This document shows, in pieces, positions 5,826-50,393 of a stretch of 64,000 nt of DNA. Position 1 is the first letter of the stretch. Every line of letters starts with the position of its first letter. A program made the position numbers and the translations under genes. Where the stretch lies: the IMG/VR virus record IMGVR_UViG_3300025450_001231; one strand, 5' to 3'. The DNA comes from a virus (lineage: Duplodnaviria > Caudoviricetes). Below the pieces are notes generated by a model that saw nothing but the letters and a program-made list of their open reading frames with translations, searched no databases and was not told where the DNA came from.

Positions 5826-6751
5826 ATGAAATAATATTAGAAAACTTTACCAACGGTAAAGGATTTGGGGACAAGCATAAAGGCCCGGATGTGAATCTAC
5901 GGGAACAAGGTGTGGCGGAAAACTATCACAGTGATTTGATGAAACAAACTTATGCAAAATTCTTCAAACCTGCTCCTCCTAAAACAGTATCAGCAGTAAA
6001 GAAGTTTTTATCTGGTGTAATAATATCATTAGGAACTGCTCAAGATAATGACTATGACGAAGAAGAACCAGAAGAAATAAGTTGGGAACAAGATCTTGCT
6101 GATGTGAGAGAAGCATATAGTAAACTACGCGGTAATAGTTCTCCAAATTGGTTTGATATTGCAGATGCTGTCTTAAGTTACGATACAGAATTTAGAGAAA
6201 GTATGCTGGAGTGGGCAGAAGAAGAGTTAGGTAACGAATTAGTTGATTTTTTATGGCATGAAGTATGGGAAGCCAAACATAAAATCTCAAGATCAGATGG
6301 ATCATATAATGTGACTTTAGGTCATCAAAATGTACCAGGACAAAAAAATGATAGAGATTCTTTCAAAGAATGGGATCCAGAAAAAGATCCTCCCAATCCA
6401 TTTGCAAACCTCAGATGGCTAGTAATGATCAACGGTGAGCAAAAGATAAAGTTTGGCGGAGTAGGTAATAGCCAAGAAGCGGCTATGAAGACTGCGACAA
6501 ACTGGGCCAACAATCATGGCTACGAGCGTGAAGTACAAGCAGGTAAAGTTAAAGTTGTGCGAGACCAACAAGGTGTGGCAGAAAACTTTGCCGATGGTAA
6601 AGGTCCCGGTAAGCCTGGAGATAGTCAACGCCATGGAATACCCAAGCACGCCACCATGGCCGAATTAGAAAAAGCCAGTCACAGTAAAGGCCGCAAAGGT
6701 CAATTGGCACGTTGGCAAATCAATATGCGTCGTGGCCATAAAAAATCATAA
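5816..6751 (+). CDS. modular late protein (probable internal virion protein) with QGVAE junctions
   Basis: TAAATA 5806-5811 upstream; N-terminus MRINEIILE; two QGVAEN junctions; basic C-terminal module. Confidence 0.65.
   Translation: MRINEIILENFTNGKGFGDKHKGPDVNLREQGVAENYHSDLMKQTYAKFFKPAPPKTVSAVKKFLSGVIISLGTAQDNDYDEEEPEEISWEQDLADVREAYSKLRGNSSPNWFDIADAVLSYDTEFRESMLEWAEEELGNELVDFLWHEVWEAKHKISRSDGSYNVTLGHQNVPGQKNDRDSFKEWDPEKDPPNPFANLRWLVMINGEQKIKFGGVGNSQEAAMKTATNWANNHGYEREVQAGKVKVVRDQQGVAENFADGKGPGKPGDSQRHGIPKHATMAELEKASHSKGRKGQLARWQINMRRGHKKS
5904..6587 (+). repeat. 21-bp direct repeat AACAAGGTGTGGC(G/A)GAAAACT flanking a 663-bp in-frame module
   Basis: copies at 5904-5924 and 6567-6587, one mismatch. 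Confidence 0.9.
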
Positions 6752-6786
6752 ACTATTATCGAAAAGATGTTTAGAATCTGAGGGTG

Positions 6787-7057
6787 TTACAATCGTCCCT
6801 TAACCAGCCCTAACTGTTGAATTTTGGGATCACCGATCTTAAGCAAAAAACTTTTAGATCCGTTGTTATACCAGTGGGTCTTTTTCTTTGATTCAAAATA
6901 ATCCACAGAACTAACCCATCCGTTGGGAATAATGTCATTAAGTTTGAATCGTTTCTTTTCTTTTGTTGTTAGATTGTAGTAAAATTTTGTCCCATAAGAA
7001 CCATTATTGCTACCAATTGTTGACAAGATTAATAGTTTTATATATAATATAGAACAT
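6787..7057 (-). pseudogene. GIY-YIG-type homing endonuclease remnant with internal deletion and frameshift
   Basis: ATG 7057 gives MFYIIYKTINLVNNW-stop (GIY-YIG-like start); another frame gives GSNNGSYGTK and HWYNNG...GLVKGRL DNA-binding-type motifs; catalytic core absent. Confidence 0.65.
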
Positions 7058-7070
7058 GATGAGTAACCCT

Positions 7071-7078
7071 TATAAATA
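7071..7078 (+). promoter_or_regulatory. T4-like late promoter upstream of tmRNA
   Basis: TATAAATA. Confidence 0.65.
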
Positions 7079-7149
7079 CAGTTGAGGACAGTCCCGAGTA
7101 ACCCCGGGGTTGGTGTTAGTTACCGCTAATACCTTACTCAATTATTTAT

Positions 7150-7540
7150 CATCGTATGAAGGAATAAGAACAATTGGCTGGACGCGGGGGGCAGTGCCCC
7201 GCCCGGTCCACCATAAACATATTAGAATCTGTAAAAAGATCGGGTTTGGTATCCCAGTCCTCTACCTGTAAGACTTAATACACCTTAGTATGTTTTTGAT
7301 GGGCCGGTCTTAGATTCGACAGTTGGTGCAGTATTTGACCAGACGATGCGGTAGGCGATGACCGTAAATCAAGCAAAACTAGTAAATGCAAAAACATCTA
7401 CAAAATTGGGTACTTTCAAAGTAACTGCAGGTAAAGGATTCCGCTTCAGCGGTTCTAAAGCTGCATCTACAAAGGAAGTAGCGTTCGTTTAATCGAACCC
7501 CACGGGGTAGGACTTACCTTGTAAAATAAACAACCAGGAC
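7150..7540 (+). ncRNA. ssrA: circularly permuted (two-piece) tmRNA
   Basis: 3' half (GAC, T-arm, CCGGUCC-A-CCA ending 7213) precedes 5' half (GGGCCGG...AUUCGAC from 7301); acceptor stem with G3.U70; P2 helices 7321-26/7174-79, 7332-36/7162-66, 7343-48/7150-55; paired intervening segment; 5' end of acceptor piece uncertain (may start near 7080). Confidence 0.92.
7388..7492 (+). other. tmRNA tag reading frame AKTSTKLGTFKVTAGKGFRFSGSKAASTKEVAFV
   Basis: GUAAAU context followed by GCA resume codon after a pk1-like hairpin; open 34 codons to TAA 7490-7492. Confidence 0.7.
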
Positions 7541-7562
7541 CCGCTTCGGCGGGTTTCTTTTT
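7539..7562 (+). terminator. intrinsic terminator after tmRNA
   Basis: ACCCGC-TTCG-GCGGGT followed by T-rich tract. Confidence 0.9.
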
Positions 7563-7590
7563 GAGTAAATACTTTTTTAATCAACTAATT

Positions 7591-8367
7591 ATGAAAATAG
7601 GTATCATCGGTTTAGGCTATGTTGGATCAGCAGTAGCCGCAAGTTACGACCCAGACCAATTATTGATCAACGATCCCGCTAAATCAAATTCTTTGCCCAT
7701 CGAAGTACTCAAAGCACAATGCGATGCAATATTTGTATGTGTGCCAACTCCGCAAAGCTCAAACGGTGCGTGCAATACCAGTATATTGGAATCTGTTATA
7801 GCACAGTTAGAAGGCTACACTGGCATTGTTATTGCTAAAAGTACTGCAAGTCCATTAGTTTATCAACAATTAGAAGCCACTTCAGGACTGAAATTGGCCC
7901 ACGTTCCAGAGTTTTTAACACAGGCTAATGCAATTGCAGATTATTTGAATCCCCATAAAATTGTAATCGGATCTAGTTCCAGTATTGCTACTGAAGTGTC
8001 AGATGTAATTATCCGCAGTAAAGTTACTTTTAATCAAAAAATAAACTACTGCTCAATTGGCGAAGCAGCGTTTTTCAAATATATGGCCAATACCTTTTTG
8101 GCCATGAAGGTTGTTATGAACAATGAGTACTATGACCTTGCTCAACAGATGAATTTGAATTGGGAAGTACTCAGCGGTATAGCACAGTACGACACTAGAC
8201 TGGGCGACAGTCATTGGCGTGTGCCCGGACCGGATGGTAGTCGTGGATTCGGTGGTGCGTGCTTTCCAAAAGATACTCAAGCATTGGCATATTTGGCAAA
8301 AGATCTAGGCGTAGATCTAGCTGTTTTAACAGCTGCTATTGACAAGAACCAAGCATATCGTATATAA
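7591..8367 (+). CDS. ugd: UDP-glucose/GDP-mannose dehydrogenase family protein lacking C-terminal domain (start moved to ATG 7591)
   Basis: GIIGLGYVG, CVPTP, KST, PEFL, GFGGACFPKD; TAAATA at 7566. Confidence 0.85.
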   Translation: MKIGIIGLGYVGSAVAASYDPDQLLINDPAKSNSLPIEVLKAQCDAIFVCVPTPQSSNGACNTSILESVIAQLEGYTGIVIAKSTASPLVYQQLEATSGLKLAHVPEFLTQANAIADYLNPHKIVIGSSSSIATEVSDVIIRSKVTFNQKINYCSIGEAAFFKYMANTFLAMKVVMNNEYYDLAQQMNLNWEVLSGIAQYDTRLGDSHWRVPGPDGSRGFGGACFPKDTQALAYLAKDLGVDLAVLTAAIDKNQAYRI

Positions 8368-8390
8368 TTGCTACTCAGTGTTTCTACTGA

Positions 8391-8398
8391 TATAAATA
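8391..8398 (+). promoter_or_regulatory. T4-like late promoter
   Basis: TATAAATA upstream of AAGGA SD of rubrerythrin. Confidence 0.65.
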
Positions 8399-8429
8399 AA
8401 TATACAGTATTCAACAAGAAGGAAAAATT

Positions 8430-8879
8430 ATGTCTATCACAATTAAAAACTTAGAATCAGCGTTTGCTGGTGAGAGTCAAGCTCACACCAAATACCGCTA
8501 CTTTGCAAAAATCGCTCGTGAAAATGGTCACGAAGATATTGCACAACATTTTGAACATACCGCAGACCAAGAGTTGCTACACGCTTGGGGTCATTTGGAA
8601 TTGCTAATTGGCAAGCCCACTACTGCAGAATGTTTGCAAAAAGCCATTGATGGCGAAACTTACGAGTTTACCACAATGTATCCAGGGTTCAAAGCAGAAG
8701 CAGAAGCTGAAGGTAATGCTCCAGCAGCCGCAGAAGCTGATACTCAAATTGCAGAATCAAAAGAACACGCAGAGCAATTTGCGGCTATTCTTGCCAAAGC
8801 AGAAAAGCGTTTTGCAGCATTGACCAAAATCGAAGCTCGCCACGCAGCTGCTTATCAATCTAAATTGGAGACACTATAA
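8430..8879 (+). CDS. rbr: rubrerythrin (ferritin-like diiron domain only)
   Basis: AFAGESQA..KY..FA..A, E..HA, E.YE...MYP, E..HA, E..HA ligand pattern. Confidence 0.9.
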   Translation: MSITIKNLESAFAGESQAHTKYRYFAKIARENGHEDIAQHFEHTADQELLHAWGHLELLIGKPTTAECLQKAIDGETYEFTTMYPGFKAEAEAEGNAPAAAEADTQIAESKEHAEQFAAILAKAEKRFAALTKIEARHAAAYQSKLETL

Positions 8880-9019
8880 TGAGCAACGAAACTACTATTA
8901 TTTGTGTGGTCTGTGGCCACGTGCACGACGAAGCTACTGAAGGTGCTTGGGACTCTCTGCCCGAGGATTTTACTTGCCCCGAGTGCGGATGCGGTAAAGA
9001 AGACTACATTACAGAGTAA
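8879..9019 (+). CDS. rubredoxin (46 aa, not in ORF track)
   Basis: MSNETTIICVVCGHVHD...WDSLPEDFTCPECGCGKEDY. Confidence 0.9.
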   Translation: MSNETTIICVVCGHVHDEATEGAWDSLPEDFTCPECGCGKEDYITE

Positions 9020-9047
9020 TACCTAAGTATTACTTTTTGTGTTGCAA

Positions 9048-9071
9048 AAAACCCACAGAAATGTGGGTTTT
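9048..9071 (+). terminator. intrinsic terminator
   Basis: AAAACCCACA-GAAA-TGTGGGTTTT then T-rich. Confidence 0.85.
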
Positions 9072-9074
9072 ATT

Positions 9075-9103
9075 TTGACTGAAATATCAAATACTGTTAT
9101 AAT
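9075..9103 (+). promoter_or_regulatory. sigma70 promoter
   Basis: TTGACT-17-TATAAT. Confidence 0.8.
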
Positions 9104-9125
9104 ATACTATCAAGTAAGGAGAAGT

Positions 9126-9473
9126 ATGTATAAGTTTTTTCAAGAAACAACAAAATGGTCGGACAGTACCCCGAATCACACATACGTTATGACTCCAGAT
9201 AAAAGTAAGGCAATAGGCTACATCAAGGCTGGCACAAAGTCTGTATTTAAGTTTAGTCAACCTATGCGTATTGACACCCGACACCGAACATTTAAGGTCT
9301 TACCCGATGACGCTTTTGCAATGACAGCGGAAATAGATCCAGCCGTCAAAACTCGGGAAGTCATAGGCTCAAAAGGTGATGTATATTATATAACCGACGA
9401 TGGTAATCAAATTACCTGTAGTTGCAGTGGATTCAAATTTCGTGGTAAGTGCAAGCACATTGTAGGAGCATAA
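9126..9473 (+). CDS. SWIM zinc-finger protein (start moved to ATG 9126)
   Basis: C-terminal CSCSGFKFRGKCKH; AAGGAG SD. Confidence 0.75.
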   Translation: MYKFFQETTKWSDSTPNHTYVMTPDKSKAIGYIKAGTKSVFKFSQPMRIDTRHRTFKVLPDDAFAMTAEIDPAVKTREVIGSKGDVYYITDDGNQITCSCSGFKFRGKCKHIVGA

Positions 9474-9474
9474 A

Positions 9475-9714
9475 ATGGCCAGTAAACCTCTTCCCGTACA
9501 CAAAGACAAATTAGGCCAGGATCTTGATTTAGATGATTGTGTGGCATTTCCTGACAGTAACACATTGTTTATTGGAAAAGTCATTAAACTTCATCCCAAA
9601 TTGGTTACTGTTGTTAAACTTGGCGGTCTTTGGCAATTTGAAACTCGTAAATATCCCGGAGATTTGATCAAACTAGAATCCGACAAGCTGACATTTTATT
9701 TGTTAAGACACTAA
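9475..9714 (+). CDS. hypothetical protein (SH3/KOW-like)
   Basis: DKLGQDL.LDD.V pattern; AGGAG SD. Confidence 0.55.
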   Translation: MASKPLPVHKDKLGQDLDLDDCVAFPDSNTLFIGKVIKLHPKLVTVVKLGGLWQFETRKYPGDLIKLESDKLTFYLLRH

Positions 9715-9721
9715 TAATCTG

Positions 9722-9750
9722 TTGACACCCTGTGCTAAATTTGTTATAAT
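9722..9750 (+). promoter_or_regulatory. sigma70 promoter
   Basis: TTGACA-17-TATAAT. Confidence 0.85.
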
Positions 9751-9772
9751 GTATGTATATTAAGGAGCCAAA

Positions 9773-11086
9773 ATGAGTAACTGTGCTGAGCATATTTGGG
9801 ATTTGGAAAGTCATCCTAGTCGCCTTAATAAAGAAGCGATCATCGAAGCCATTGCTGAATCGGGCAATGACGAGTTTTTTGAAGGTTGCAGACTAGCACT
9901 TGACCCAATGATTACCTTTGGGCTAAAAGCAATTAAGGAAAAAACAAATGAAGATGGTCCTGGTTTGTCTTGGGATAATTTTATTAGTGTTGTTGGCGGT
10001 TTTATTAATCGTACAATTACCGGTAACTCAGCAAGGAATGCTATTGATCAGATGATTGAACAGGCCACTCAAAAAGAGTGGAATGGTTGGTATCGTCGTA
10101 TACTAATCAAAGACCTGCGTTGTGGTGTTAGCGAAAAAACAGTTAATAAAGTAGTGGAGAAAAAATATGCTCGTTACAGTATTCCCGTATTTGGCTGCCA
10201 GCTTGCTCATGACAGTGCTAATCATGAAACTAAAGTCCAAGGAAAAAAACTTATCGAAGTCAAACTGGATGGTGTACGTGTTATCACAATTGTCTATCCT
10301 GATGCTCGCGTTAATCAATTTAGTCGCAACGGCAAAGAGCTGGTCAATTTTCCCCATATAGTTGAACAATTTGCTGCCATTGCACCCTCACTGACTGAAC
10401 CCTGGGTGTTTGATGGTGAGATTATGAGCAGTAGTTTCCAAGACTTGATGAAACAGGTACATCGCAAGGACAATGTCAAGGCCAATGACGCAGTACTTAA
10501 TTTGTTTGATTGGATGAAACTATCCGACTTTGAAGCAGGTATCTGTACAATGAGTCAAGATATCCGTAGTAGAGGATTGGAAGTTTGGTACAACAGTCAC
10601 CAGTCAGTGTTGCCTAATATAACCATTGTAGGGCGTGAACTAGTGGACTTGGATTCCGACGAAGGGCAAACAAGATTTCGAGAAATCAATGCAGCCGCAG
10701 TAGCCGGAGGCTACGAAGGTATTATGATCAAAGATCCTTCTGCCGCTTATGAATGTAAACGTAGTGTAGCCTGGCTCAAACTAAAACCTTTTATCGAAGT
10801 TAGCCTTACTGTAGTTGCAGTAGAAGAAGGCACTGGCCGCAATGTAGGTAAACTGGGTGCACTGGTATGTGAAGGCGTCGACGATGACAAACAAATTCGA
10901 GTCAATGTAGGCTCGGGATTTAGTGACAGTGATCGCGACAGTTATTATCAATCAAAGGATACTTTACTTGGTCAAATAGTTGAGGTACGTGCTGATGCAG
11001 TTACACAAAATCAAGATGGCACTTATAGTCTTCGTTTTCCGAGGTTCCTACATTTCCGTGGCTTCATGGCTGGCGAAAAAATCTAA
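9773..11086 (+). CDS. lig: ATP-dependent DNA ligase
   Basis: motif I EVKLDGVR, DGEI, YEGIMIK, WLKLK, OB-fold SLRFPRF. Confidence 0.95.
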   Translation: MSNCAEHIWDLESHPSRLNKEAIIEAIAESGNDEFFEGCRLALDPMITFGLKAIKEKTNEDGPGLSWDNFISVVGGFINRTITGNSARNAIDQMIEQATQKEWNGWYRRILIKDLRCGVSEKTVNKVVEKKYARYSIPVFGCQLAHDSANHETKVQGKKLIEVKLDGVRVITIVYPDARVNQFSRNGKELVNFPHIVEQFAAIAPSLTEPWVFDGEIMSSSFQDLMKQVHRKDNVKANDAVLNLFDWMKLSDFEAGICTMSQDIRSRGLEVWYNSHQSVLPNITIVGRELVDLDSDEGQTRFREINAAAVAGGYEGIMIKDPSAAYECKRSVAWLKLKPFIEVSLTVVAVEEGTGRNVGKLGALVCEGVDDDKQIRVNVGSGFSDSDRDSYYQSKDTLLGQIVEVRADAVTQNQDGTYSLRFPRFLHFRGFMAGEKI

Positions 11087-11102
11087 GTTGGGCAATTTGT
11101 TT

Positions 11103-11336
11103 ATGAATAGGCAAGCAATTAAAGATACATTGTATGGTGGCATAATTGAGATGACACAAAATCGCCGCTACTACTATACCAGCGGAATAGGTACTGCATA
11201 TAGTCATTGGACCACAGAAGGTGAAACAGAATTGCTGGCCTATATCAAAACCATGACCAAACTGATGAAAGAAGCCGAGGCAACCGATTTAGATGAACGT
11301 GCGAAAAATTTAGTAATGAAAGGACTTTCAGAATGA
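11103..11336 (+). CDS. hypothetical protein (start moved to ATG 11103)
   Basis: ORF after ligase stop, overlaps next ATG. Confidence 0.55.
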   Translation: MNRQAIKDTLYGGIIEMTQNRRYYYTSGIGTAYSHWTTEGETELLAYIKTMTKLMKEAEATDLDERAKNLVMKGLSE

Positions 11337-11515
11337 GTAAATTCAGAGAATGGTATTTGGACTACGATACACAAATCACTTGGTTTATCCTGGGTGTTAC
11401 ATTTGATGTATTTTTAACCTGCATTAGTCAGGGCGAGTGGATCGGTGCTGGCATTGAAGCACTGGTATTCTTTTTGTTAGCGTCTATGGAATATTACAAG
11501 GTGAAACCACAATGA
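11333..11515 (+). CDS. small two-pass membrane protein
   Basis: two hydrophobic stretches in 60 aa. Confidence 0.55.
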   Translation: MSKFREWYLDYDTQITWFILGVTFDVFLTCISQGEWIGAGIEALVFFLLASMEYYKVKPQ

Positions 11516-11781
11516 TAGACACAATGACCCAAGACGAAAGATACACTTACTTTAGACAACAGTTGCAGGACAACATCTGTGAAGTCACATTTACCAAAGT
11601 AAACGGTGAAGTTAGAGTAATGCCCTGTACTCTACGAGCAGATATTTTGCCTGTTGTAGAAAACAAGCAAACAAAAGTTTCGGAACCAAAAACCGAAACA
11701 ATCAGTGTTTTTTGTACCGACAAAAAAGAATGGCGTAGTTTTCGAACAATGAACGTCACAGGTTTGGTAATATTAAACTAA
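11512..11781 (+). CDS. WYL_2/Sm-like phage protein
   Basis: VTFTKVNGEVRVM.CT ... V....KKEWRSFR. Confidence 0.7.
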   Translation: MIDTMTQDERYTYFRQQLQDNICEVTFTKVNGEVRVMPCTLRADILPVVENKQTKVSEPKTETISVFCTDKKEWRSFRTMNVTGLVILN

Positions 11782-11799
11782 AAACGGCAAAACAAAGTA

Positions 11800-11828
11800 T
11801 TGCAATTAGACAATTAAACTGTTATACT
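11800..11828 (+). promoter_or_regulatory. sigma70 promoter
   Basis: TTGCAA-17-TATACT. Confidence 0.65.
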
Positions 11829-11873
11829 ATGTCTAACTGTACAAAAACAGTAATTATTTTATAAGGAATTAAT

Positions 11874-12137
11874 ATGATGTTTTCGACAAAAACTAAGACA
11901 CACAAATTGTTATCAGCACTTCAAGCTGGTGAAGTTTTGACTCCCAGCCAAATCAGCAAGCGTTTCAGCATTGGTAATCCAAGTGCAGAAGTTACACGCA
12001 TTCGTCAAGCTGGTTTCGTTGTTTATGCTAACAAGCGTAAAGCAGGCAATGGTGTAGTTGTTACCGAATACCGTACTGGTAAAGCAAGTCGTGCATTGAT
12101 TGCAGCTGGCTACAAAGCCTTGTCAATGGGCATTTAA
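11874..12137 (+). CDS. winged-helix-like DNA-binding protein
   Basis: LLSALQAGEVLTPSQISKRFSIGNPSAEVTRIR. Confidence 0.6.
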   Translation: MMFSTKTKTHKLLSALQAGEVLTPSQISKRFSIGNPSAEVTRIRQAGFVVYANKRKAGNGVVVTEYRTGKASRALIAAGYKALSMGI

Positions 12138-12155
12138 TAGTACACGGTGCTAGTC

Positions 12156-12180
12156 AAAAAGGCACTTAGGTGCCTTTTTT
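12156..12180. terminator. bidirectional intrinsic terminator
   Basis: AAAAAGGCAC-TTAG-GTGCCTTTTTT. Confidence 0.9.
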
Positions 12181-12195
12181 TATATAGGAAGAATC

Positions 12196-13044
12196 ATGAC
12201 ACTTACAGTTAATTTAATCAGCGATTTACATTTAGAATTTGCAGACTTGGAATTACCAGGCGGCGATGTCTTGATTCTATCCGGCGATGTTTGTGAAGCC
12301 AAAAATATCAAACAAGAAAACTATAACCCCAATATGGTGGTGTTGCCCACCGAAAGACCTGATCGAAGGATCGACCGTTTTGCAAGGTTCTTCAACGAAG
12401 AATGTGTAAAGTATCGGCAAGTGTTGTATGTTATGGGCAATCACGAGCATTACCATTTTAAGTTTAATAATACTTACAATTATATTACTGACAATATTCC
12501 CAGTAATGTTCGCCTGTTGGAAAAAGAAACTGTGGAAATAGACGGTGTGGTATTCATCGGAGCTACACTTTGGACAGACTTGAATGGTAATGATCCTATC
12601 ACTGATTATACTCTTAGAACTCAAATGAATGACTATAAGGTAATTACCAATCATTACAAAGATCGCGATTCGTATTTTAGGCTGCAGCCCGAAGTAACTT
12701 ATCGAGATCACCAAGCGGCTGTTAAATATATTGACGATACAGTTAAACTAAATTACAATAAACCTTGTGTAGTGGTCACACACCACAGTCCCAGTAGGCG
12801 TAGTATGAAACCAATGTATGAAGGAGACTATCATATGAATGGTGGATACAGCAGTAATTTGGAATGGCTTATGGAACAAAATAAAAATCTGCGAGTGTGG
12901 ACACACGGCCATACACACGATTTTTTCGACTATACTGTTGAACAATGCCGTGTGGTATGTAATCCACGTGGCTATGCTGGATATGAACAACGCAGCCGAG
13001 AGTTTGATCCCGGTTTTGCTTTTACTATTAATAATCAACTATGA
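12196..13044 (+). CDS. calcineurin-like metallophosphoesterase
   Basis: SDLH, GD, GNHE, THH, HGHTH motifs. Confidence 0.9.
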   Translation: MTLTVNLISDLHLEFADLELPGGDVLILSGDVCEAKNIKQENYNPNMVVLPTERPDRRIDRFARFFNEECVKYRQVLYVMGNHEHYHFKFNNTYNYITDNIPSNVRLLEKETVEIDGVVFIGATLWTDLNGNDPITDYTLRTQMNDYKVITNHYKDRDSYFRLQPEVTYRDHQAAVKYIDDTVKLNYNKPCVVVTHHSPSRRSMKPMYEGDYHMNGGYSSNLEWLMEQNKNLRVWTHGHTHDFFDYTVEQCRVVCNPRGYAGYEQRSREFDPGFAFTINNQL

Positions 13045-13508: not shown

Positions 13509-13533
13509 CATTAATTCAAAAATGTGTTATAAT
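13505..13533 (+). promoter_or_regulatory. sigma70 promoter driving small-paralog array
   Basis: TTGACA-17-TATAAT, 5 nt before ATG 13539. Confidence 0.85.
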
Positions 13534-13538
13534 TACAT

Positions 13539-14736: not shown

Positions 14737-14757
14737 GTTGAAACTAAGGAGTTAAAT

Positions 14758-15670: not shown

Positions 15671-15674
15671 ATAC

Positions 15675-18976: not shown

Positions 18977-18984
18977 TATAAATA
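18977..18984 (+). promoter_or_regulatory. T4-like late promoter
   Basis: TATAAATA 5 nt before sod ATG. Confidence 0.75.
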
Positions 18985-24217: not shown

Positions 24218-24235
24218 TAAGAGATTTAACAATGT

Positions 24236-26917: not shown

Positions 26918-26922
26918 AATAA

Positions 26923-39773: not shown

Positions 39774-39794
39774 ATATCTTTAGCAAATGGTAAG

Positions 39795-39830: not shown

Positions 39831-39836
39831 TTATCT

Positions 39837-40670
39837 ATGAATTACTATGAAACATTGGGTGTGCCAAATACTGCATCGGAAGATGAACTCAAAAGAGCTT
39901 ATCGAAAATTAGCCAGTCAGCATCATCCAGACAAAGGCGGAAATACTGCCAAGTTCCAGGAAATTCAAGAAGCTTATGCTACACTGAGTGATCCGCAAAA
40001 ACGTGCTCAATATGATAATCCTCAACCGCAAATGGGAGGGGTTCATTTTAATTTCAACGGTCATAATATAAACGATATATTCAGCCAATTTGGATTTAAT
40101 CCTTTTGGCGGCGGCGATCCTTTTGCCAATTTCAGACATCAGCAACAACGAAATAAAGATATACGGGCCAATTTAAGTGTGACGCTCGAAGATACACTAG
40201 CAGACAGGGAAAAACACCTAAACATTAGCACTGGCCCAGGACAAACACAAGAAGTTACTGTAACCATCCCACGTGGTATTACTCCACAGACCACAATCAA
40301 ATATCCTGGACTAGGTGAACAAGTATATCCAAATTTACCAAGAGGCGATCTATATCTTACTATAAATTTGATGACCAATTGGAAGTTTCAAACTGCTGGA
40401 TTAGACCTAATAACAGACTTGACATTAGACTGTTTTCAAGCTATACTAGGTAGTGAACAAACAGTAGTTGGCCTAGACGGAAAACAATTTGTAATCAAAA
40501 CACCCGCTGGTTGCCAACACGGTACCAAATTAAAAATTTCTGGTGAGGGCCTGTGGGGATTTCAACAAGACATCAAAGGACATTTATTTGCACGTGTTAA
40601 CATTACTATCCCAACCGATCTTTCGGAAGAAAAGGTAAGTATTATCCGTAATCAACTGCTCGCAGGTTAA
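39837..40670 (+). CDS. dnaJ: DnaJ-class co-chaperone lacking zinc finger (CbpA-like; start moved to ATG 39837)
   Basis: YYETLGV, HPD, G/F-rich linker, C-terminal domain. Confidence 0.92.
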
Positions 40671-40693
40671 ATATTTTATAACAACTAAATTAA

Positions 40694-42931
40694 ATGCTAC
40701 AAAACAATCCAGACATTGACTCTATTATCGAAGTTGCTACAAAAATAGCACAAAGTAAAAACCACGAATATGTAACCTTGGAACATTTATTGTTGTCTAT
40801 GGTAACGTATCAGCCATTTACAGAAACTCTATCATCATTTGGTTGTATTGTTGACGAAATGCAAAGAGAAATAGACACATATTTAGACAAACAAACATAT
40901 TTGAGCAACAAAGGGTTCGACCCGGTTCCCAAGAAAACTCATAGCCTAGAACGTGTATTCAACCGTGCATTCACACAGGTACTGTTCAGTGGCAGACAAA
41001 CAATGCAATTGGTTGATTTGTATTTGAGTTTAATGAACGAAGAACGCAGTCACGTAAGATACTTTTTACTCAAGTACGGAGTCGAGCGTGCTGCATTTGT
41101 GGAACATTGGAATAAAGTCAACGATTCACCTAAAGATGGAAAAAGCAAAAGGAGCAGATCTGCAGTGGACGGTATTTTAGAAGAACATTGCGAAAATCTA
41201 AACGAGCAAGCCGAGCGTGGGGAAATTGATCCTGTTATTGGTAGAGAGCTTGAAATCGAAGAAATCACACAGGTACTGGCTAAACGTAATAAATCAAATG
41301 TACTAATGGTAGGCGATCCTGGTGTAGGTAAAACTGCTATTGCAGAAGGCCTTGCACGTAATATTGTTAACGGCAATGTACCTGAATATTTGAAAGGGTT
41401 CGTAGTTTACAATTTAGATATTGGCAGTTTACTTGCTGGTAGTAAGTATCGCGGCGAATTCGAAGAAAAACTCAAGGATGTTATTCGTGCATTGAATACC
41501 AAAGGCAAGTGTATTTTGTTTATCGACGAAGCACATCAAATGAAAGGTGCAGGCGGCGGAGCACAAAGTAGTGTGGACTTTGCTAATATGATTAAACCAG
41601 CACTTACCAAAGGACGTATTAAAGTTATTGCTAGTACAACGTGGGAAGAATATACACAAAGTTTTGAAAAGGATCGTGCACTAATGCGCAGATTCTATAG
41701 ACTAACTGTAGAGGAACCTACCCCAGCGGTTGCTAAAGATATTCTTAAAGGATTGAAAGTGCATTTTGAAGCGTTTCACGGTGGTATGATTACCGATGAA
41801 GCCATTAACTCAGCAGTAGATCTCAGTGTGCGTTATCAAACAGACAAACGCTTGCCCGACAAGGCAATTGACTTAATCGATACTGCGGCTGCAAAACTTA
41901 AAATTGTTGCCCCAGACTTTATTGTACGCAAGAGTCATATTATCGATACACTCAGCAAGTTTACCAAGATTCCAGTGGATCAAATGGATCAACAGGGCAA
42001 CAATAGTTTAGAAAAATTGGAACCCAATATCAAAACTAAACTGTTTGGACAAGATGCTGCAGTAGATGCTGTATTAGATAAAATTTATGTAAGCCGTGCT
42101 GGACTTAAATCAATTAACAAGCCTGTGGGCAGTTTCTTGTTCTTGGGCCCAACAGGTACAGGTAAAACTGAACTTGCTAAATTGTTAGCCGAAAACTTAG
42201 GAATGAAACTGTTACGCTATGATATGAGTGAGTATCAAGAAAAGCACAGTATTGCCAAGTTGATTGGTGCACCTCCTGGATATATTGGCTACGATGATGG
42301 CAATATCGGTGGCGGATTACTGATCAGTGATGTTGAAAAGAATCCTAACTGTGTTATCTTATTTGATGAAATTGAAAAAGCACACACTGATGTCAGTAAC
42401 CTGTTGTTAAGTTTAATGGATGAGGGTATTATTACCAGCAGTAACGGCAAAAAAGCAGACTGCAGAAACGCCATTGTTATTTTAACCAGTAACTTAGGTG
42501 CTGCAGACGGGGAAAGAAATAGCATTGGCTTTGGTAGAGATCTTGAGCGCAAAGGCGAAGACGATAAAGCAGTTAAAGATTTCTTTAAGCCTGAGTTCCG
42601 TAATCGTTTGGATGCAATTATTAAGTTTAACAAGCTGAATAAAGAAAGCATTAAGAAAATTACTATTAGATTTATCAATGAGATGAATGACCTATTAGGC
42701 AACAAACAAATTACTGTTGCATTAACAGAAACAGCATACGATTATGTTATCAAAGAAGGTTTTGATAGTAAAATGGGTGCAAGACCATTGAATAGAAAAA
42801 TTAATGATTTAATTAAAACTCCGCTAAGTAAAAAGATACTATTTGAAAATATTTCAAACAGCATAATCAGAGTTGACTATACTGATAAAATTGAATTCCA
42901 TATTGAAAATCAATTTGCACCAACAACCTAA
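40694..42931 (+). CDS. clpA: ClpA-like AAA+ unfoldase
   Basis: HEYVTLEHLLL N-domain; GDPGVGKT and GPTGTGKT Walker A; no ClpB coiled-coil middle domain; 745 aa. Confidence 0.9.
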   Translation: MLQNNPDIDSIIEVATKIAQSKNHEYVTLEHLLLSMVTYQPFTETLSSFGCIVDEMQREIDTYLDKQTYLSNKGFDPVPKKTHSLERVFNRAFTQVLFSGRQTMQLVDLYLSLMNEERSHVRYFLLKYGVERAAFVEHWNKVNDSPKDGKSKRSRSAVDGILEEHCENLNEQAERGEIDPVIGRELEIEEITQVLAKRNKSNVLMVGDPGVGKTAIAEGLARNIVNGNVPEYLKGFVVYNLDIGSLLAGSKYRGEFEEKLKDVIRALNTKGKCILFIDEAHQMKGAGGGAQSSVDFANMIKPALTKGRIKVIASTTWEEYTQSFEKDRALMRRFYRLTVEEPTPAVAKDILKGLKVHFEAFHGGMITDEAINSAVDLSVRYQTDKRLPDKAIDLIDTAAAKLKIVAPDFIVRKSHIIDTLSKFTKIPVDQMDQQGNNSLEKLEPNIKTKLFGQDAAVDAVLDKIYVSRAGLKSINKPVGSFLFLGPTGTGKTELAKLLAENLGMKLLRYDMSEYQEKHSIAKLIGAPPGYIGYDDGNIGGGLLISDVEKNPNCVILFDEIEKAHTDVSNLLLSLMDEGIITSSNGKKADCRNAIVILTSNLGAADGERNSIGFGRDLERKGEDDKAVKDFFKPEFRNRLDAIIKFNKLNKESIKKITIRFINEMNDLLGNKQITVALTETAYDYVIKEGFDSKMGARPLNRKINDLIKTPLSKKILFENISNSIIRVDYTDKIEFHIENQFAPTT

Positions 42932-42940
42932 TAGACAGAA

Positions 42941-43678: not shown

Positions 43679-43704
43679 TAAATATTTGTATATTCAAGGA
43701 GCCT

Positions 43705-43881
43705 ATGATGGCAAAAATCTACGAAGAATCAATTACGATTAAATTAAGTGTATTGGAAAAAGACAACACGATTGCCGACAGACAATCGCTAGTAACCGAC
43801 GACATTACATCTGCATTAGAATCAGTAGTGGAAGAACTATTAAACGACAAATCTGTTGTCGTTGAAGTATCAACAAATTAA
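43705..43881 (+). CDS. small hypothetical protein (58 aa, not in ORF track)
   Basis: TAAATA 43679, AAGGAG SD; MMAKIYEESITIKLS. Confidence 0.7.
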   Translation: MMAKIYEESITIKLSVLEKDNTIADRQSLVTDDITSALESVVEELLNDKSVVVEVSTN

Positions 43882-43897
43882 CCAAAGAAAGTAATCA

Positions 43898-44860: not shown

Positions 44861-44870
44861 CTAATTTGGC

Positions 44871-44904
44871 TAAATACTGCAATATAATTAAATTATTGCA
44901 GTAT
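44871..44904 (+). promoter_or_regulatory. late promoter plus 11-bp perfect hairpin reaching the start codon
   Basis: TAAATA 44871-76; ATACTGCAATA 44874-84 / TATTGCAGTAT 44894-904. Confidence 0.75.
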
Positions 44905-47122
44905 GTACTCATTTGAACTATTTGAAGCTGGCGCAACCCGTATAGTTGTAACCTACCCCGGACGTTTTCAACCCTTCCATCAAGGGCACGCCGGGGTTTT
45001 TCACGCACTCCAAAAAAAGTTTGGTAATGACAATGTGTATATTGTTACCAGCAATGATCAAAGCAGTGCCAAAAGTCCTTTTAATTTCAGCGACAAATAT
45101 CAGTTAATGACTGCTGCAGGTATCCCTGCCAATCATATCATTGAAGGCAATCAAATGTACAAATTGCCCGAAGGTTTTGATCCTGAGACTACAGTATTTG
45201 TTACTGCAGTGGGTGCACCTGATGCCAAAAGATTAAACCCCGATTCTTATCTAAAGCGTGATAATGCTGCTTCAGGCAAAAAAGCCGGAGATCCCAGTTA
45301 CTTTTTAACTTGGGGGAAGAATGATGCAATGCCTGCTATGGAACACGGCTATGTAGTTGTAGTTCCTGAAATCAAAAAATCAATTGATATCGACGGACAA
45401 ACATACGATGTTAGCCATGGCACTGAATGCCGTAATCTATGGCTAAGACTAAAAGATAACGAAAAAGGTCGTGCAGAATTCCTAAAACAGTTGTATGGCC
45501 GTGCTACACCAGAATTAGCACACATATTTGATAAAATACAACCTGTTAGTGAAGATGAAATGCCTGACGGCGATTACAGTACTAGTCCTATACACGGCGG
45601 TAATGTAAGAGAAGATGCCAGTGGATATATTCCTAAGAATAAAAAAGAAGCACGCGATCCACGTTGGAGCAATGCACTAACCGTAGACGTGCATCCAGAC
45701 ACTCCAATGAAGAACCTACGTGCATTTAAGTTAGCAGAAACTGTCAACCCAGACGATTTTCATATACACGACACTGACAAGCTGGATCGTGTATTGGCAC
45801 ATTTGTGTAAAATGATTATACAAGGTCAACAGGATCGTCCGGACTACTACGGTATGGTTGCATCGGCAGTAATTGATCCAAAAAATCAAATTGCATTGGG
45901 TATAAATTATCTTGCCGACGAAGGCAAACGTGTGCACGGCGAACGTGCAGCTATAGACGAGTATAATAAAAAATACGGCGAGATTCCCGAAGGCAGTATC
46001 ATTGTTACTACACTAAGCCCTTGTTGCAGTCCAATGGATGAGCGTTACGGTGAAAGTTGCACAGACCTTATCAATGATACCAATGTACACAAAGTTTACT
46101 GTGGTTACAAAGATCCTTCACAAGAAGAAACAATTAAAAAATTATTCCATACTGCAGCTACTCGAAATGATAAACTACAGTCGTTATGCAAAGACTTTGC
46201 CGATACATTCTTGGGTGTAATCAGCGAAGACGAAGAAGGCGGCCGTGCAATGATGGGCAAGTTGGCTGACACAGGTAAGATTGTGCGCATACTGCGTAAG
46301 CAATATTCAGTGCCGTTTAGCCAAGAAAAAGAATGGTTATTGATTGATACTGACCCTGAAAAAGGCAATCGCGGCCTAGGTATCAAGTGGGTACCTGCTA
46401 GTACCAAGTTTACTTGGATTCGTCCTTTTAGAGAAAAGATTGACGAAAACAAAGACAGTTGGCAAAAACATAAAAATCCACGTGCAGGTGGAATGAGTAA
46501 AAAAGCAGTAAAAAGCTATCGTCGTAGTCATCCAGGCAGTAAAATCAAAACTGCAGTTACCAAATCTCCTAAGAAGATTAAAAAAGGCAGTGCAGATGCC
46601 AAACGTCGTAGTAGTTTTTGTGCACGTATGAAAGGTATGAAAAAGAGTCGTACCAGTGCTAAAACCGCACGAGATCCTAACAGTAATATAAACAAAAGCC
46701 TGCGTCGTTGGCATTGTAACGAAAGCATCAACTCTAATAGTGATGCAGAGTTTCCAAATTTATTGGCCAAGTTTTTGCCTATAGCAATGCAGGATTTGAA
46801 ACTTGATAAGTTGCCTAAAATCAAGTTGGAGAAACACATTCAAGACAAAGACGGACAAGCAACTTTTGGACGTTTTGTCAACAACACCTGTACTATACAC
46901 CTTGCTATAGCTGATCGTCATCCAGTGGATATTTTACGCACTTTGGCACACGAATTAACACACTACAAACAATATACACTCAATGAACTAACTTCTGGCA
47001 GTGGACGTACTGGTAGTCCTGAAGAAAACCAAGCACACGTTATGGCGGGTATTATTATGCGTCATTTTAACAAGAGTTTTCCCACTGGAGTTAACTTAAC
47101 TCCAATTGAATTAAAATCTTAA
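44903..47122 (+). CDS. multidomain late protein: nucleotidyltransferase + Zn deaminase + basic module + HExxH metallopeptidase
   Basis: YPGRFQPFHQGH; HGE...TTLSPC...C; RRSSFCARMKG; LRTLAHELTH. Confidence 0.75.
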   Translation: MYSFELFEAGATRIVVTYPGRFQPFHQGHAGVFHALQKKFGNDNVYIVTSNDQSSAKSPFNFSDKYQLMTAAGIPANHIIEGNQMYKLPEGFDPETTVFVTAVGAPDAKRLNPDSYLKRDNAASGKKAGDPSYFLTWGKNDAMPAMEHGYVVVVPEIKKSIDIDGQTYDVSHGTECRNLWLRLKDNEKGRAEFLKQLYGRATPELAHIFDKIQPVSEDEMPDGDYSTSPIHGGNVREDASGYIPKNKKEARDPRWSNALTVDVHPDTPMKNLRAFKLAETVNPDDFHIHDTDKLDRVLAHLCKMIIQGQQDRPDYYGMVASAVIDPKNQIALGINYLADEGKRVHGERAAIDEYNKKYGEIPEGSIIVTTLSPCCSPMDERYGESCTDLINDTNVHKVYCGYKDPSQEETIKKLFHTAATRNDKLQSLCKDFADTFLGVISEDEEGGRAMMGKLADTGKIVRILRKQYSVPFSQEKEWLLIDTDPEKGNRGLGIKWVPASTKFTWIRPFREKIDENKDSWQKHKNPRAGGMSKKAVKSYRRSHPGSKIKTAVTKSPKKIKKGSADAKRRSSFCARMKGMKKSRTSAKTARDPNSNINKSLRRWHCNESINSNSDAEFPNLLAKFLPIAMQDLKLDKLPKIKLEKHIQDKDGQATFGRFVNNTCTIHLAIADRHPVDILRTLAHELTHYKQYTLNELTSGSGRTGSPEENQAHVMAGIIMRHFNKSFPTGVNLTPIELKS

Positions 47123-47152
47123 TAAATATAGTATCATCTGGGATAGTATACA

Positions 47153-47659
47153 ATGAACAGCAAAGATTTTTTACACGAAGGTATTGCGGAAGACGCACAT
47201 CAAATGCACATGGATCACGAAGTGCAAATGGCCCGCGAAGAGCTTTATCACGCTGCAGAACACGCAATTGCTCTGCACAAAATGTTGCAACACGTTAGCG
47301 AGCAACAGGGATTGGAAGGCTGGGTAAGTGCTAAAATTACGCTAGCCAATGACTATTTGAATACAGTCCGTGAGTATATGGAATACCAGTTAATGACACA
47401 GGACTCAACTCCTACAGATATGAGCCAAGAAGAACCAATCGACGAGCGCAACTCCATTGTTACCAAGTTAGCTAAAAATCAATTGCGCGGACATTACAGA
47501 CACGGTGTTAGAGAAAATGCCAGTGGTGGTGCAAGCAGTGCAGGCAGTGTTGCTACTGTAGTCAAAGGCGGTAGTGGCAAAACAAATTTATTAGGCGGCC
47601 CAGAGTGGAATGGTCCTAATCCATTTAAGAAAACTATTAAGAAACGAGCTGCCAAATGA
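47153..47659 (+). CDS. probable internal virion protein
   Basis: TAAATA 47123; MNSKDFLHEG; DHEV.MA..L...WV..KIT.A.DY. Confidence 0.6.
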   Translation: MNSKDFLHEGIAEDAHQMHMDHEVQMAREELYHAAEHAIALHKMLQHVSEQQGLEGWVSAKITLANDYLNTVREYMEYQLMTQDSTPTDMSQEEPIDERNSIVTKLAKNQLRGHYRHGVRENASGGASSAGSVATVVKGGSGKTNLLGGPEWNGPNPFKKTIKKRAAK

Positions 47660-48396
47660 GTTCAATGAAGCAGTTATTGGAAGCAGTCGACAAATATACT
47701 TTTGCCGGTGAGCCCGAGCAAAAGCCTGGAGACCAAGTTCGAGGCACAGACAAAGCCAAGCCAAGAAAAGATCACCGTCATCCATTTGCTGGTAAGTTGG
47801 TGGGTGGATGCGAAGAAAGCATTATGCTTGAGCTGGACAAAACTGCCAAAGCTACTTCAATGATTCGTCGTGTCAAAGAAGCATACGAACAAGTTGAAAA
47901 TTCAGAACCCAAGGCAGCTCCTAAAGACACAGTTGCTAAAACTTGGAACCAATTGAATCGCCAAGAACGCACAAGCGGTGTTAAAGGTCGCACTATTTGG
48001 AATCCGAAAATTCGCAAATATCAAGTGGTGTTTGATGTTCCTGCAAAACCACAACAAGTTAAAGAATACGGTGCAACACCAGGTGCTCCCAGTACCACAG
48101 GTGGTGCACAAAACCCAGATGCACAAACTACAGCTGCAAATGTACAAAAATCAATGATGGCCAAAAATAATCTCAGTAAGATTGCATCGGTTGATAAGAA
48201 TATCAATCCACAACAGGCCAATCAAGCATTGATGGCAATGGGCAATAGTAAAAATACCAATACACCTATTACTGGTCCACAACTAAGACAAACCAAACAA
48301 CTGGCAGACTTGGTAGGCGATGCACTCAGTGATCCTACCAAAGGTAGCCAAGTTGCTAACTTATTGCAACAAGTAGCAAGAAAGCAAGGACAATAA
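47656..48396 (+). CDS. probable internal virion protein
   Basis: MSSMKQLLEA; HPFAGKLVG; Gln-rich C-terminus. Confidence 0.55.
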   Translation: MSSMKQLLEAVDKYTFAGEPEQKPGDQVRGTDKAKPRKDHRHPFAGKLVGGCEESIMLELDKTAKATSMIRRVKEAYEQVENSEPKAAPKDTVAKTWNQLNRQERTSGVKGRTIWNPKIRKYQVVFDVPAKPQQVKEYGATPGAPSTTGGAQNPDAQTTAANVQKSMMAKNNLSKIASVDKNINPQQANQALMAMGNSKNTNTPITGPQLRQTKQLADLVGDALSDPTKGSQVANLLQQVARKQGQ

Positions 48397-50393
48397 TGTT
48401 TATTAACGATTTATTTGATAACAAAAAAATACAAGAAGCTGCTAATGCTGCTCAACAGGCTGCAATTGCCATTAATATGAAAAAACATCATCAAAAGCCC
48501 AAGGATATGAAAGAGGCTGAAGTAGATGAAATGTTTGGTTTTATGAGTCCTAAGAAACCTAGTCCCACTGACTATGCAACAAAAGTAAGCAGTGCCCCTA
48601 AGAAGTTAACTAAACAAGACTACGACGAATTAATGAAGCAGTCAGAAAGACCAAAAGGAACACAGGTTGTATATCATAACAGAGATGAATATGTTAAAGA
48701 TATGCAAAGAAGAAATATCAAGCCAGCAACCATTGAAGAAGAAGATATTGCAGAAGGCGAACGCAATATGAGTCGTGCTGCTAAAGGTGTAATGAAATAT
48801 GGCAAGGATGGTATGAAGGCATTGGCCAAAGCAGGTAGAGAAGGTGCCAGCGACGAAAAATTAGACACTATACGTGACAAGTACGACCATTATAACGAAA
48901 GTGTAGCAGAAGATTCAGAAAAACGTTGTATGCAATGTGGTATGAAAAACTGTAGTTGTACACCAGGTAAATGCAAGTGTAAGCCTGTTGCAGGTTGGGT
49001 ACCAGGCAAAGGTTTTAAGAAGGCTATGGAAGAAGCTGCATTAAACGAAAAATGGAGTCAAAAATACAAGAGCAGTATTAATTGCTCACATCCAAAAGGT
49101 TTCAGTCAAAAGGCGCATTGTGCCGGTAAAAAGAAACACAATGAAGATATAACTATGGAAATGACCTGCCCTGATTGCGGTATGTGCCAAACACACGGCA
49201 ATCTTAACGAAATTAAAAAGGGTCAAAAAGATTCAAATGGATACACCAAATGTTGGCCTGGCAAACACGCAGAAGGTACTAAGAAATCTAGTGTTACAGG
49301 TAAACAAGTAAGAAACTGTGTACCAAACAAAGGTGTGAAGGAAGGCCATGCAGACCAACAACGCAAAATCTTTAAGAAGAATGGTAAGCCAGTAGGCGAA
49401 GTTGGTATTGACCGTGAATCAAGTCCTGGCAACGGCCAATGGTATATGAAATGTTATGCTTACGACATAGACAATGCGGGCTACGATTCATACGAAGAAG
49501 CCGTTGAAGAACTAAAACATTGCTTAAAGCAAGGTGTGGCGGAAGGTGGTGCTGAGACAAGTTGGTCTAATGACACAGATACGATTACACTACAGGATAT
49601 TTTAGAATTAACCAAACACATTAAACAAATAAATTTACCGATAAACGATAATCTAAAGAGTAAACTACTTCATTGGGAAGGTAACCCAGAAGAAATAGAA
49701 AGAGTTAATCAAGTAACGGTGTCTAATCAATTTCCTATTTTAATTATGGTAAATGAGCAAGGTCAAATAGAATGGATCCTTGATGGCAACCATAGACTAC
49801 ATAAAGCAATACAGTCCCAAGCAAAAACAATACCTGCTAAACTTATTAGACCCAACAATCTTAACGACAAAGCAAAGAAAATATTTAATATAAAAGAACA
49901 AGGTGTGGCGGAAGGCCATCCTGAGGACGACGATGATCACGAGTGTTATGATTGCCGCGGCACTGGCGAAGGCCAACACGAAGGAACCAGTTGCAGAACC
50001 TGTGGTGGTACTGGCGTAGCACGCCCAGATCACGAAGAAGATGATTCAGATTATGAAGAACGCTTAAATTATCGCAGAAGATTTAGAGAAAGTAAAATCT
50101 ATTATAATGTAGTAGGTACACCTGCTGCAGCATTGCGTGAACAGTTTGGTATGAGAAAAGACCGCAATGGTTGGTACTTGAAAGAAACTGCTGGCCGTAA
50201 GCGTATACTTGAGGCACACAAAGCATTTGGTAATCCTTTGACAGAAGGTATGAATCTAGCTGCTTATAATGGCAGTACTGCTATCATCGGCGACGGTAAT
50301 GCCATTAGTCCAGTGGGCAGTAATCCACGCAGACAACAAGAATTGATCCCTACACGAAATAGTAAAGCGAAGAAAAATGGAAGAATTAGTTAA
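48396..50393 (+). CDS. modular polyprotein-like late protein with ~12 Glu-bounded modules (incl. ParB-like and DnaJ-type zinc finger)
   Basis: KGVKEG and two QGVAEG junctions; ILDGNHR; CxxCxGxG...CxxCxGxG. Confidence 0.7.
   Translation: MFINDLFDNKKIQEAANAAQQAAIAINMKKHHQKPKDMKEAEVDEMFGFMSPKKPSPTDYATKVSSAPKKLTKQDYDELMKQSERPKGTQVVYHNRDEYVKDMQRRNIKPATIEEEDIAEGERNMSRAAKGVMKYGKDGMKALAKAGREGASDEKLDTIRDKYDHYNESVAEDSEKRCMQCGMKNCSCTPGKCKCKPVAGWVPGKGFKKAMEEAALNEKWSQKYKSSINCSHPKGFSQKAHCAGKKKHNEDITMEMTCPDCGMCQTHGNLNEIKKGQKDSNGYTKCWPGKHAEGTKKSSVTGKQVRNCVPNKGVKEGHADQQRKIFKKNGKPVGEVGIDRESSPGNGQWYMKCYAYDIDNAGYDSYEEAVEELKHCLKQGVAEGGAETSWSNDTDTITLQDILELTKHIKQINLPINDNLKSKLLHWEGNPEEIERVNQVTVSNQFPILIMVNEQGQIEWILDGNHRLHKAIQSQAKTIPAKLIRPNNLNDKAKKIFNIKEQGVAEGHPEDDDDHECYDCRGTGEGQHEGTSCRTCGGTGVARPDHEEDDSDYEERLNYRRRFRESKIYYNVVGTPAAALREQFGMRKDRNGWYLKETAGRKRILEAHKAFGNPLTEGMNLAAYNGSTAIIGDGNAISPVGSNPRRQQELIPTRNSKAKKNGRIS
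49530..49915 (+). repeat. 17-bp perfect direct repeat CAAGGTGTGGCGGAAGG flanking a 369-bp in-frame ParB-like module
   Basis: copies at 49530-49546 and 49899-49915; degenerate copy AAAGGTGTGAAGGAAGG at 49329. Confidence 0.9.

Follow-up and report, generated by a model that had tools for sequence, protein, structure and literature searches.

What allows unrelated protein modules in two distant genes of one phage to be separated by the same short stretch of DNA? We address this question for a 64,000-nucleotide stretch (the window) of IMG/VR virus record IMGVR_UViG_3300025450_001231 (Duplodnaviria; Caudoviricetes), in which a 15-mer, CAAGGTGTGGCGGAA, encodes Gln-Gly-Val-Ala-Glu (QGVAE) and stands between the modules of two open reading frames (ORFs), P0001 and P0002. 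We show that homology between phages breaks at this junction and that cassettes are exchanged there. With a probability of roughly 60%, P0001 and P0002 carry their cargo as polyproteins that resemble capsid internal proteins, and the junction serves both as a processing site and as an anchor for recombination.

Five copies of the junction, two in P0001 and three in P0002, lie on the plus strand in frame with their ORFs. Together with two degenerate boundaries in P0002, they are:

5906..5920, plus strand: QGVAE junction, exact 15-mer, in frame (window scan)
6569..6583, plus strand: QGVAE junction with one mismatch, a synonymous change (GCA for GCG; window scan)
48744..48755, plus strand: degenerate boundary DIAE/G; a lake contig departs from the window nearby, at 48742
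48900..48911, plus strand: degenerate boundary SVAE/D; the module after it ('EKRCMQCGMKNC') follows canonical QGVAE in L009 and P0017
49329..49343, plus strand: decayed junction KGVKE, three mismatches (window scan); the next module, GHADQQRKIF..., follows canonical QGVAE in L024
49530..49544, plus strand: QGVAE junction, exact (window scan)
49899..49913, plus strand: QGVAE junction, exact (window scan)

The spacings within the two ORFs (663, 201 and 369) are all multiples of 3, and the copies translate as (E/Q/K)QGVAE(N/G), the decayed one reading KGVKE. Scanning the window with up to 3 mismatches gives 7 matches where 0.97 are expected, a count reached in none of 100 shuffles. The two additional matches are a three-mismatch copy at 47177 (EGIAE), in frame in ORF 47153–47659 just past its N-terminal leader, and one at 59474, which does not share the frame and is apparently fortuitous. 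An earlier note on this DNA, made from the letters, had described the recurrence, the common frame and the use of uncommon codons. Each of these observations holds: GTG accounts for 15–18% of Val codons and GCG for 6–7% of Ala codons in the window and in related ORFs.

The two carrier ORFs and their modules are:

5816..6751, plus strand: P0001, 311 amino acids, composed of leader MRINEIILE, junction, 216-residue core module, junction and basic C-terminal module (from the ORF and its homologues)
5921..6568, plus strand: core cassette of P0001, 'NYHSDLMKQ...KVKVV' (12 homologues)
6584..6751, plus strand: C-terminal module of P0001, NFADGKGPG..., 92% identical at the ORF end in L056 and 60% in L147
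48396..50393, plus strand: P0002, a 665-residue polyprotein of about 10 micro-modules, pieces of which occur in other orders in 48 other junction-bearing ORFs
49545..49898, plus strand: ParB/Srx-like cassette in P0002 with a DGNHR motif (phrog_17560; 32% GC)

Among its 12 homologues, homology to the P0001 core cassette starts exactly after the junction Glu and stops at the next junction. An AlphaFold model of P0001, built with these homologues, has a mean predicted local distance difference test score (pLDDT) of 58.5, with values of 65–85 over most of residues 41–160 and 201–250. Both junctions fall between these better-predicted parts, in segments of pLDDT <50 that are probably disordered. 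Foldseek found nothing in the PDB that matches the model at E<=0.001. Pfam and PHROGs yielded nothing useful for P0001 and P0002 beyond phrog_17560, and we assign the ParB-like module from its motif and that family alone. For eight large carrier ORFs, Pfam names only GNAT, NT5C, DUF5661 and DUF6321, plus one TAT-signal match under the curated cut-off. The modules were also said to be AT-richer than their flanks. This is so for the ParB-like module (49545–49898), with 32% GC compared to 43–44% in the flanks; the P0001 module (5921–6568; 37.8%) equals its leader in GC content, and only the C-terminal tail (47.6%) is less AT-rich than the module.

That the junction marks module boundaries, as the earlier note proposed, is borne out by comparisons between phages. 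When junction instances from different contigs are paired (124,497 pairs), one flank is shared (at least 65% over 60 nucleotides) and the other unrelated in 294 pairs, and both flanks are shared in only 14. Homologous junction-to-junction modules from different contigs form 56 pairs; in 47 of these, which include modules 96–100% identical, the DNA is unrelated on both sides. Seven pairs have the same flanks, and these are mostly duplicate contigs that are 100% identical throughout. Single-linkage clustering had merged all whole inter-junction segments into a single giant cluster, owing to the several sub-modules in terminal segments, and we therefore used local and junction-anchored comparisons instead.

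The ParB-like cassette of P0002 shows the exchange at high resolution. It is 93% identical at the nucleotide level in G002, L064 and L147, where its flanks are unrelated. G002 is one of five related IMG/VR jumbo contigs (G001–G005, 238–525 kb) that stand in for the genome of the window; they share the DNA polymerase gene (PolB) with it at 65–70% nucleotide identity and contain 1–7 junction copies each, spread over several genes. In G002, the 93% identity covers exactly 49530–49914, from junction to junction, with PolB at 69%. Pieces of lake metagenome contigs end at 49526–28, 49545–46, 49914–16 and 49326–30, a 373-nucleotide lake contig matches 49542–49914 with 0 differences, and the same lake run contains several different continuations just beyond 49914. 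The cassette in the window is thus a recent transfer bounded by junctions. Read 'joints' from 49545 to 49897, which could pass for deletion variants, were not counted, the short side being only the 20 letters of the repeated junction.

The exchange also reaches across genes. Homologues of the P0001 core module (residues 36–255) occur in at least 10 different architectures. In P0017, this module sits among modules that belong to P0002 in the window, and L147 unites the ParB-like module of P0002 with the tail module of P0001. Since both mix modules of P0001 and P0002, modules must move between the families of these two distant genes, in line with the cassette shuffling the earlier note had suggested.

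P0001 and P0002 belong to a large polyprotein family of uncultured T4-related phages, many of them jumbo phages and mostly from freshwater. The exact 15-mer is present in at least 120 IMG/VR contigs, many with 2–4 copies at in-frame spacings, and long carrier ORFs often hold 2–8 junction copies. In frame within open frames of at least 100 amino acids are 157 of 167 copies. The loci stem from well over a hundred metagenome identifiers, from lake and ocean, and are uncultured. Loci reached through protein homology alone reuse the same codons (two of two junctions in L243, and variants of one to three bases in L244). A scan of GTDB with a 19-mer gave 19 matches, of which two, on contigs of metagenome-assembled genomes (L236 and L237), have a polyprotein context; the others are unrelated or chance. 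The junction is essentially absent from cellular genomes. No QGVAE polyprotein occurs in the cultured phages of the collection searched; T4-like cyanophages and pelagiphages among them have no more than single micro-modules. The literature we found on QGVAE is mostly about alpha-synuclein, with none on phages and no account of the junction.

The micro-modules that P0002 and P0017 share with cultured T4-like cyanophages and pelagiphages lie there in hypothetical proteins (531 records), e.g., L246 (Synechococcus phage ACG-2014f gp129) and L219 (S-SM2 gp108). They comprise KYKSSINCSxPKGFSQ, CWxGYK...C, DACYxKVKxxxxVWPSAYAS and DUF6321, and the cyanophage and pelagiphage versions have neither the QGVAE junction nor the leader.

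The junction is constrained as DNA. A scan for E-Q-G-V-A-E-G that is blind to codons, and thereby removes the selection bias of an exact 15-mer scan, finds the exact 15-mer in 63/103 sites in new loci and in 88/133 in all loci (61–66%), and most other sites are one base away. Codon usage of the same ORFs predicts exact encoding in 0.3%. The roughly 200-fold excess confirms the suspicion, raised earlier from synonymous codons in the window, of a constraint at this level. Third codon positions of the junction are 91–97% conserved, and codon identity at aligned identical residues is 0.86–0.92 in the junction versus 0.47–0.75 in homologous modules. The conserved core has sharp edges and spans approximately 19–21 bases (RAG CAAGGTGTGGCGGAA GGC); beyond −3 and +17 the flanks are random, and 156 of 158 contexts are unique. 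It is not palindromic and contains no hairpin or promoter. No comparable conservation of DNA was found upstream of or within the leader.

What the junction peptide might do is suggested by its resemblance to sites in T4. In T4 internal proteins, a single cut follows the capsid targeting sequence (CTS), MKTYQEFIAE (PMC8442874). The prohead protease gp21 cleaves after L/I-X-E; processing depends on CTS residues 8 and 10 and is blocked when residue 10, before the cut, is Asp (PMC9026906). Of 501 junction instances, 498 have Glu at P1 and none has Asp there, and P2 varies (A, E, T, S, V). The second position of the P3 codon is T in 500, which keeps P3 hydrophobic. Leaders of the form M-(K/R)-x-x-(E/D/Q)-(F/L/I)-(I/L/V)-x-E, scored as M-[KR..]-x1-3-[DEQNS]-hydrophobic-hydrophobic, open 73/153 junction ORFs and 110/721 controls (p=1e-16). 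Examples are MKTYQFITE, MKAYEFITE, MRATEFIIE-GVAEG, MRINEILVE-QGVAEG and the MRINEIILE of P0001; the leader of P0002 is MFINDLFDNK. Their likeness to the T4 CTS is by pattern only. Standalone genes consist of leader and module (P0016 and P0018, where the P0001 core module follows MKINE(L/I)(I/L)NE) or of leader, junction and module (L138, L001), and the first residue of the module is the same after leader ...INE or junction ...VAE. Homologues of gp21 (PF03420) and of the capsid protein gp23 (PF07068) are encoded in G001, G003 and G005, and the capsid proteins of gp23-encoding related jumbo contigs have L-x-E sites in their N-terminal region. The proposal that V-A-E is a gp21-type site is consistent with the P1 Glu, the hydrophobic P3, the enriched leaders, the position of standalone modules directly behind the leader Glu and the gp21 and gp23 homologues of the relatives; the fit to the T4 rule at P3 is imperfect (see below).

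T4 itself (L239, NC_000866) offers a precedent. The first 32 nucleotides of ipII and ipIII (regions 3660–3719 and 4357–4416, minus strand) are identical through codons ...F-I-A-E/A and then diverge abruptly; ipI shares only its first 10 nucleotides and scattered later positions with them. Thus, in ipII and ipIII, a DNA-identical in-frame piece that ends at the gp21 site stands ahead of unrelated cargo.

On a 156-kb lake contig, L244, adjacent genes at 965–12224 mostly open with T4-CTS-like leaders (MKINQILTE, MKINEILNE, MRLLELKNLLE, MRISEILNE ...), and the run stops before a ferritin/Dps-like gene. From its sequence, this run looks like an expanded internal-protein locus. The leader-bearing array of the window spans 44903–50393 and is smaller.

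We propose that a carrier would comprise a short CTS-like leader and one to nine unrelated small modules split by ...(K/E)-Q-G-V-A-E/(G/E/A/D/N). The leader would target this string into the prohead core, where a gp21-type prohead protease would cut after each ...VAE (hydrophobic-X-Glu) and so free separate internal proteins, to be ejected with the DNA like T4 IPI-III. At the DNA level, the identity of about 20 bases is the point of in-frame cassette exchange between genes and between phages; this exchange would take place during co-infection, by general phage recombination on short identity and without a dedicated enzyme. Intact junctions may persist because only those keep moving, and mutated ones (49329 KGVKE, 48744 DIAE, 48900 SVAE) may decay in place.

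Several points weigh against this proposal. Cleavage, packaging and injection of the carrier proteins are predictions, the leaders are defined by a loose pattern and the start codons come from mechanical assignment. P3 is mostly Val, where the T4 rule has Leu/Ile, and no PF03420 or PF07068 match was obtained in G002 or G004, the latter 99% complete. The earlier note had called both carriers late proteins. This agrees with a late promoter box, TATAAATA, at 2434, ahead of an overlapping operon (2449–6751) whose last gene is P0001. It does not extend to P0002, which lies in the replication region before Dps-like, DsbA-like and PolB genes and has no such box upstream nearer than 38797. Finally, 15–21 bases are very short for homologous recombination; PMC2839356, citing Singer 1982, puts the requirement of T4 recombination at small (<50 bp) patches of homology. 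Because the junction is so short and its synonymous conservation nevertheless so strong, a sequence-specific factor may be needed.

A dedicated sequence-specific enzyme (a nuclease, recombinase or annealing factor) might accordingly recognise the core of about 20 bases and drive cassette excision and insertion, the peptide being tolerated or co-opted. The sharp edges of the core, its near-perfect conservation including third codon positions and its shortness for efficient general recombination speak for such an enzyme, and Arbiol et al. leave a targeted recombinase open for the shuffling of PeSL repeats (PMC2839356). However, no recombinase or nuclease family recurs beside carrier ORFs, where DsbA-like, PolB, Dps-like, clamp and gp32 families do; the core lacks the palindromic form typical of recombinase sites; and the P1 Glu and hydrophobic P3 indicate that the peptide itself is under selection. 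We regard this explanation as rather unlikely. Distinctly unlikely is a more elaborate version, an 'in-frame integron' for capsid-delivered anti-defence proteins, in which a phage enzyme would cut or pair the core and carry protein-coding cassettes in frame from gene to gene and from phage to phage, and the same site would serve DNA exchange and proteolytic release. A linked recombinase, which the earlier note had suggested looking for, did not emerge: no recombinase family is among the recurrent neighbours in 211 loci, a survey confined to the surroundings of the carrier ORFs. 'Integron' is for this reason an analogy only. As in an integron, promoterless cassettes follow a fixed start, all in the same orientation, with a repeated site at their boundaries; unlike an integron, the system has no integrase and no attC-like inverted repeats, and its cassettes are joined in frame to form a single protein.

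Very unlikely, in our judgement, is a role in RNA or translation, either as a Shine-Dalgarno-like AAGGUG pause with rare GUG and GCG codons for stepwise folding or as an mRNA processing site, with the breakpoints as a by-product. The core does contain AAGG..GG..GGAAGG together with two codons that are the rarest in their families, and the junction always lies between independently folding units. Yet a pause needs fewer than 15 fixed bases, and CAA, GGT and GAA are as conserved as the rare codons. An Rfam scan of the whole window finds no RNA family at the junctions, there is no conserved flanking structure, and neither an antisense nor a guide copy of the 15-mer occurs in the window when up to 3 mismatches are allowed. 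Such a role also leaves the exact two-sided ends of recently transferred cassettes unexplained. An ordinary flexible linker with codons shared by recent common descent is extremely improbable and, in spite of the low-confidence, probably disordered segments around the junctions, already contradicted by codon-level results, with adjacent homologous modules at 0.47–0.60 codon identity against about 0.9 for the junction and copies in about 150 unrelated contexts from many metagenomes.

Our preferred explanation, processing site plus recombination anchor, has close parallels in T4. T4 internal proteins are injected anti-restriction proteins (PMC12373910; PMC3012670). IPI-III with their CTS (Mullaney & Black 1996; Repoila et al. 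1994, cited through PMC8442874, PMC3012670 and PMC2839356) likewise have a short N-terminal leader of similar pattern. Both systems have a hydrophobic-X-Glu site (FIAE, cleaved, in T4 and GVAE, predicted, here) and hypervariable unrelated cargo behind a DNA-conserved piece, the 32 nucleotides of ipII/ipIII. In contrast to T4, which has one gene per protein, the junction is internal and occurs up to 8 times per ORF, giving polyproteins, and a different sequence, QGVAE, is common to phages so divergent that their PolB genes are 65–70% identical.

The internal-protein loci of T-even phages are hypervariable. In T4-type phages, cassettes are shuffled by way of PeSL repeats, among other places in the region of gene 43 (PMC2839356). 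This is proposed to happen when the repeats on either side of a cassette recombine, possibly via mini-circles, and the authors draw an integron analogy (PMC2839356). Short conserved repeats that directly flank exchanged cassettes in hyperplastic regions are a feature the QGVAE junction shares with PeSL (Arbiol et al. 2010, PMC2839356; PMC4122927). PeSLs, however, are intergenic, about 100 bp long and composed of a promoter plus stem-loop; the QGVAE junction has 15–21 nucleotides and lies in frame within coding sequence, and what it moves are protein modules, not whole genes. Polyvalent proteins (Iyer et al. 2017, PMC5512222) are likewise multi-domain, thought to be delivered with DNA and rich in ParB-like domains, and possible cassette recombination has been noted for them. 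They differ in that no conserved linker or junction is described in PMC5512222 and in their domain set (MuF, ArdC/MPTase, methylases), which is not seen here, where Pfam names few modules.

The junction is best regarded as a variant of two themes, T4 CTS/internal proteins and linker-mediated shuffling; new is that it is internal, repeated, in frame and builds polyproteins. In bacterial polymorphic toxins, junction motifs (VENN in CdiA, PxxxxDPxGL in Rhs) split a constant part from swappable C-terminal modules and admit orphan cassettes by recombination, and the Rhs junction is also a proteolytic site. Unlike the carriers described here, these toxins have a single junction per protein, toxin/immunity pairs and longer flanking homology. 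The modular theory of phage evolution proposes short 'linker' sequences for module exchange; to our knowledge, clear cases of them are rare and intergenic.

Long ORFs in the window are all on one strand. Its PolB shares 51% identity with the enzyme of Sinorhizobium jumbo phage Phosso, and its DNA stems from freshwater metagenomes. The surroundings of P0002 comprise:

44903..47122, plus strand: first ORF of the leader-bearing array, MYSFELFEAG..., with a cytidylyltransferase-like N-terminal part
47153..47659, plus strand: ORF with leader MNSKDFLH followed by junction-like EGIAE (47177–47191); by eye, its N-terminus is like that of the L073 carrier ORF
47656..48396, plus strand: ORF whose N-terminus is, by eye, like that of another carrier ORF (L027)
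50377..55318, plus strand: synteny anchor of a Dps-like gene (50377–50811), a DsbA-like 86-residue gene (52084–52344) and PolB (52640–55318)

Families named by eye from representative sequences as resembling Dps, DsbA and PolB flank junction ORFs in 55–68 of the 211 IMG/VR loci. With sliding-clamp and gp32 lookalikes included, the range is 22–68, and the order in the window is the same.

A few kilobases 5' of the leader-bearing array, at 40694–42931 (plus strand), is a gene for a 745-residue ClpA/ClpB-like double AAA+ ATPase (phrog_4871, 804 bits), preceded by a DnaJ-like ORF (39837–40670). The ATPase could bear on polyprotein handling. About 400 bases 3' of P0001 lies a permuted two-piece transfer-messenger RNA (tmRNA; Rfam RF04321, 7150–7435, plus strand) that scores 80.3 bits, the gathering score being 47; ARAGORN reports no tRNA or tmRNA in the window. 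A gene at 19614–22313 (plus strand), about 900 bases of which are collagen-like 9-base (G-X-Y) repeats, encodes an 899-residue tail-fibre-like protein. Large fibre-like ORFs without family matches follow at 22349–28068, and a TATAAATA box is at 18977. In the 525-kb G005, a GIY-YIG (Seg-like) homing-endonuclease-like ORF stands right after the major capsid gene (L215, 2669–3649). The junction pairs of this contig at 176506–177234 and 524059–524454 have an equal spacing of 381 bases; a terminal repeat or the duplication of a carrier gene may be present in it.

If our explanation is true, it would account for the rapid re-assortment of probably injected proteins in a large group of aquatic T4-related phages and would provide hundreds of short, precisely bounded candidate modules for host takeover or anti-defence. 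Leader, junction and cargo would then constitute a natural design rule for loading proteins into capsids, and the role of microhomology in phage mosaicism would become directly testable by synonymous recoding.

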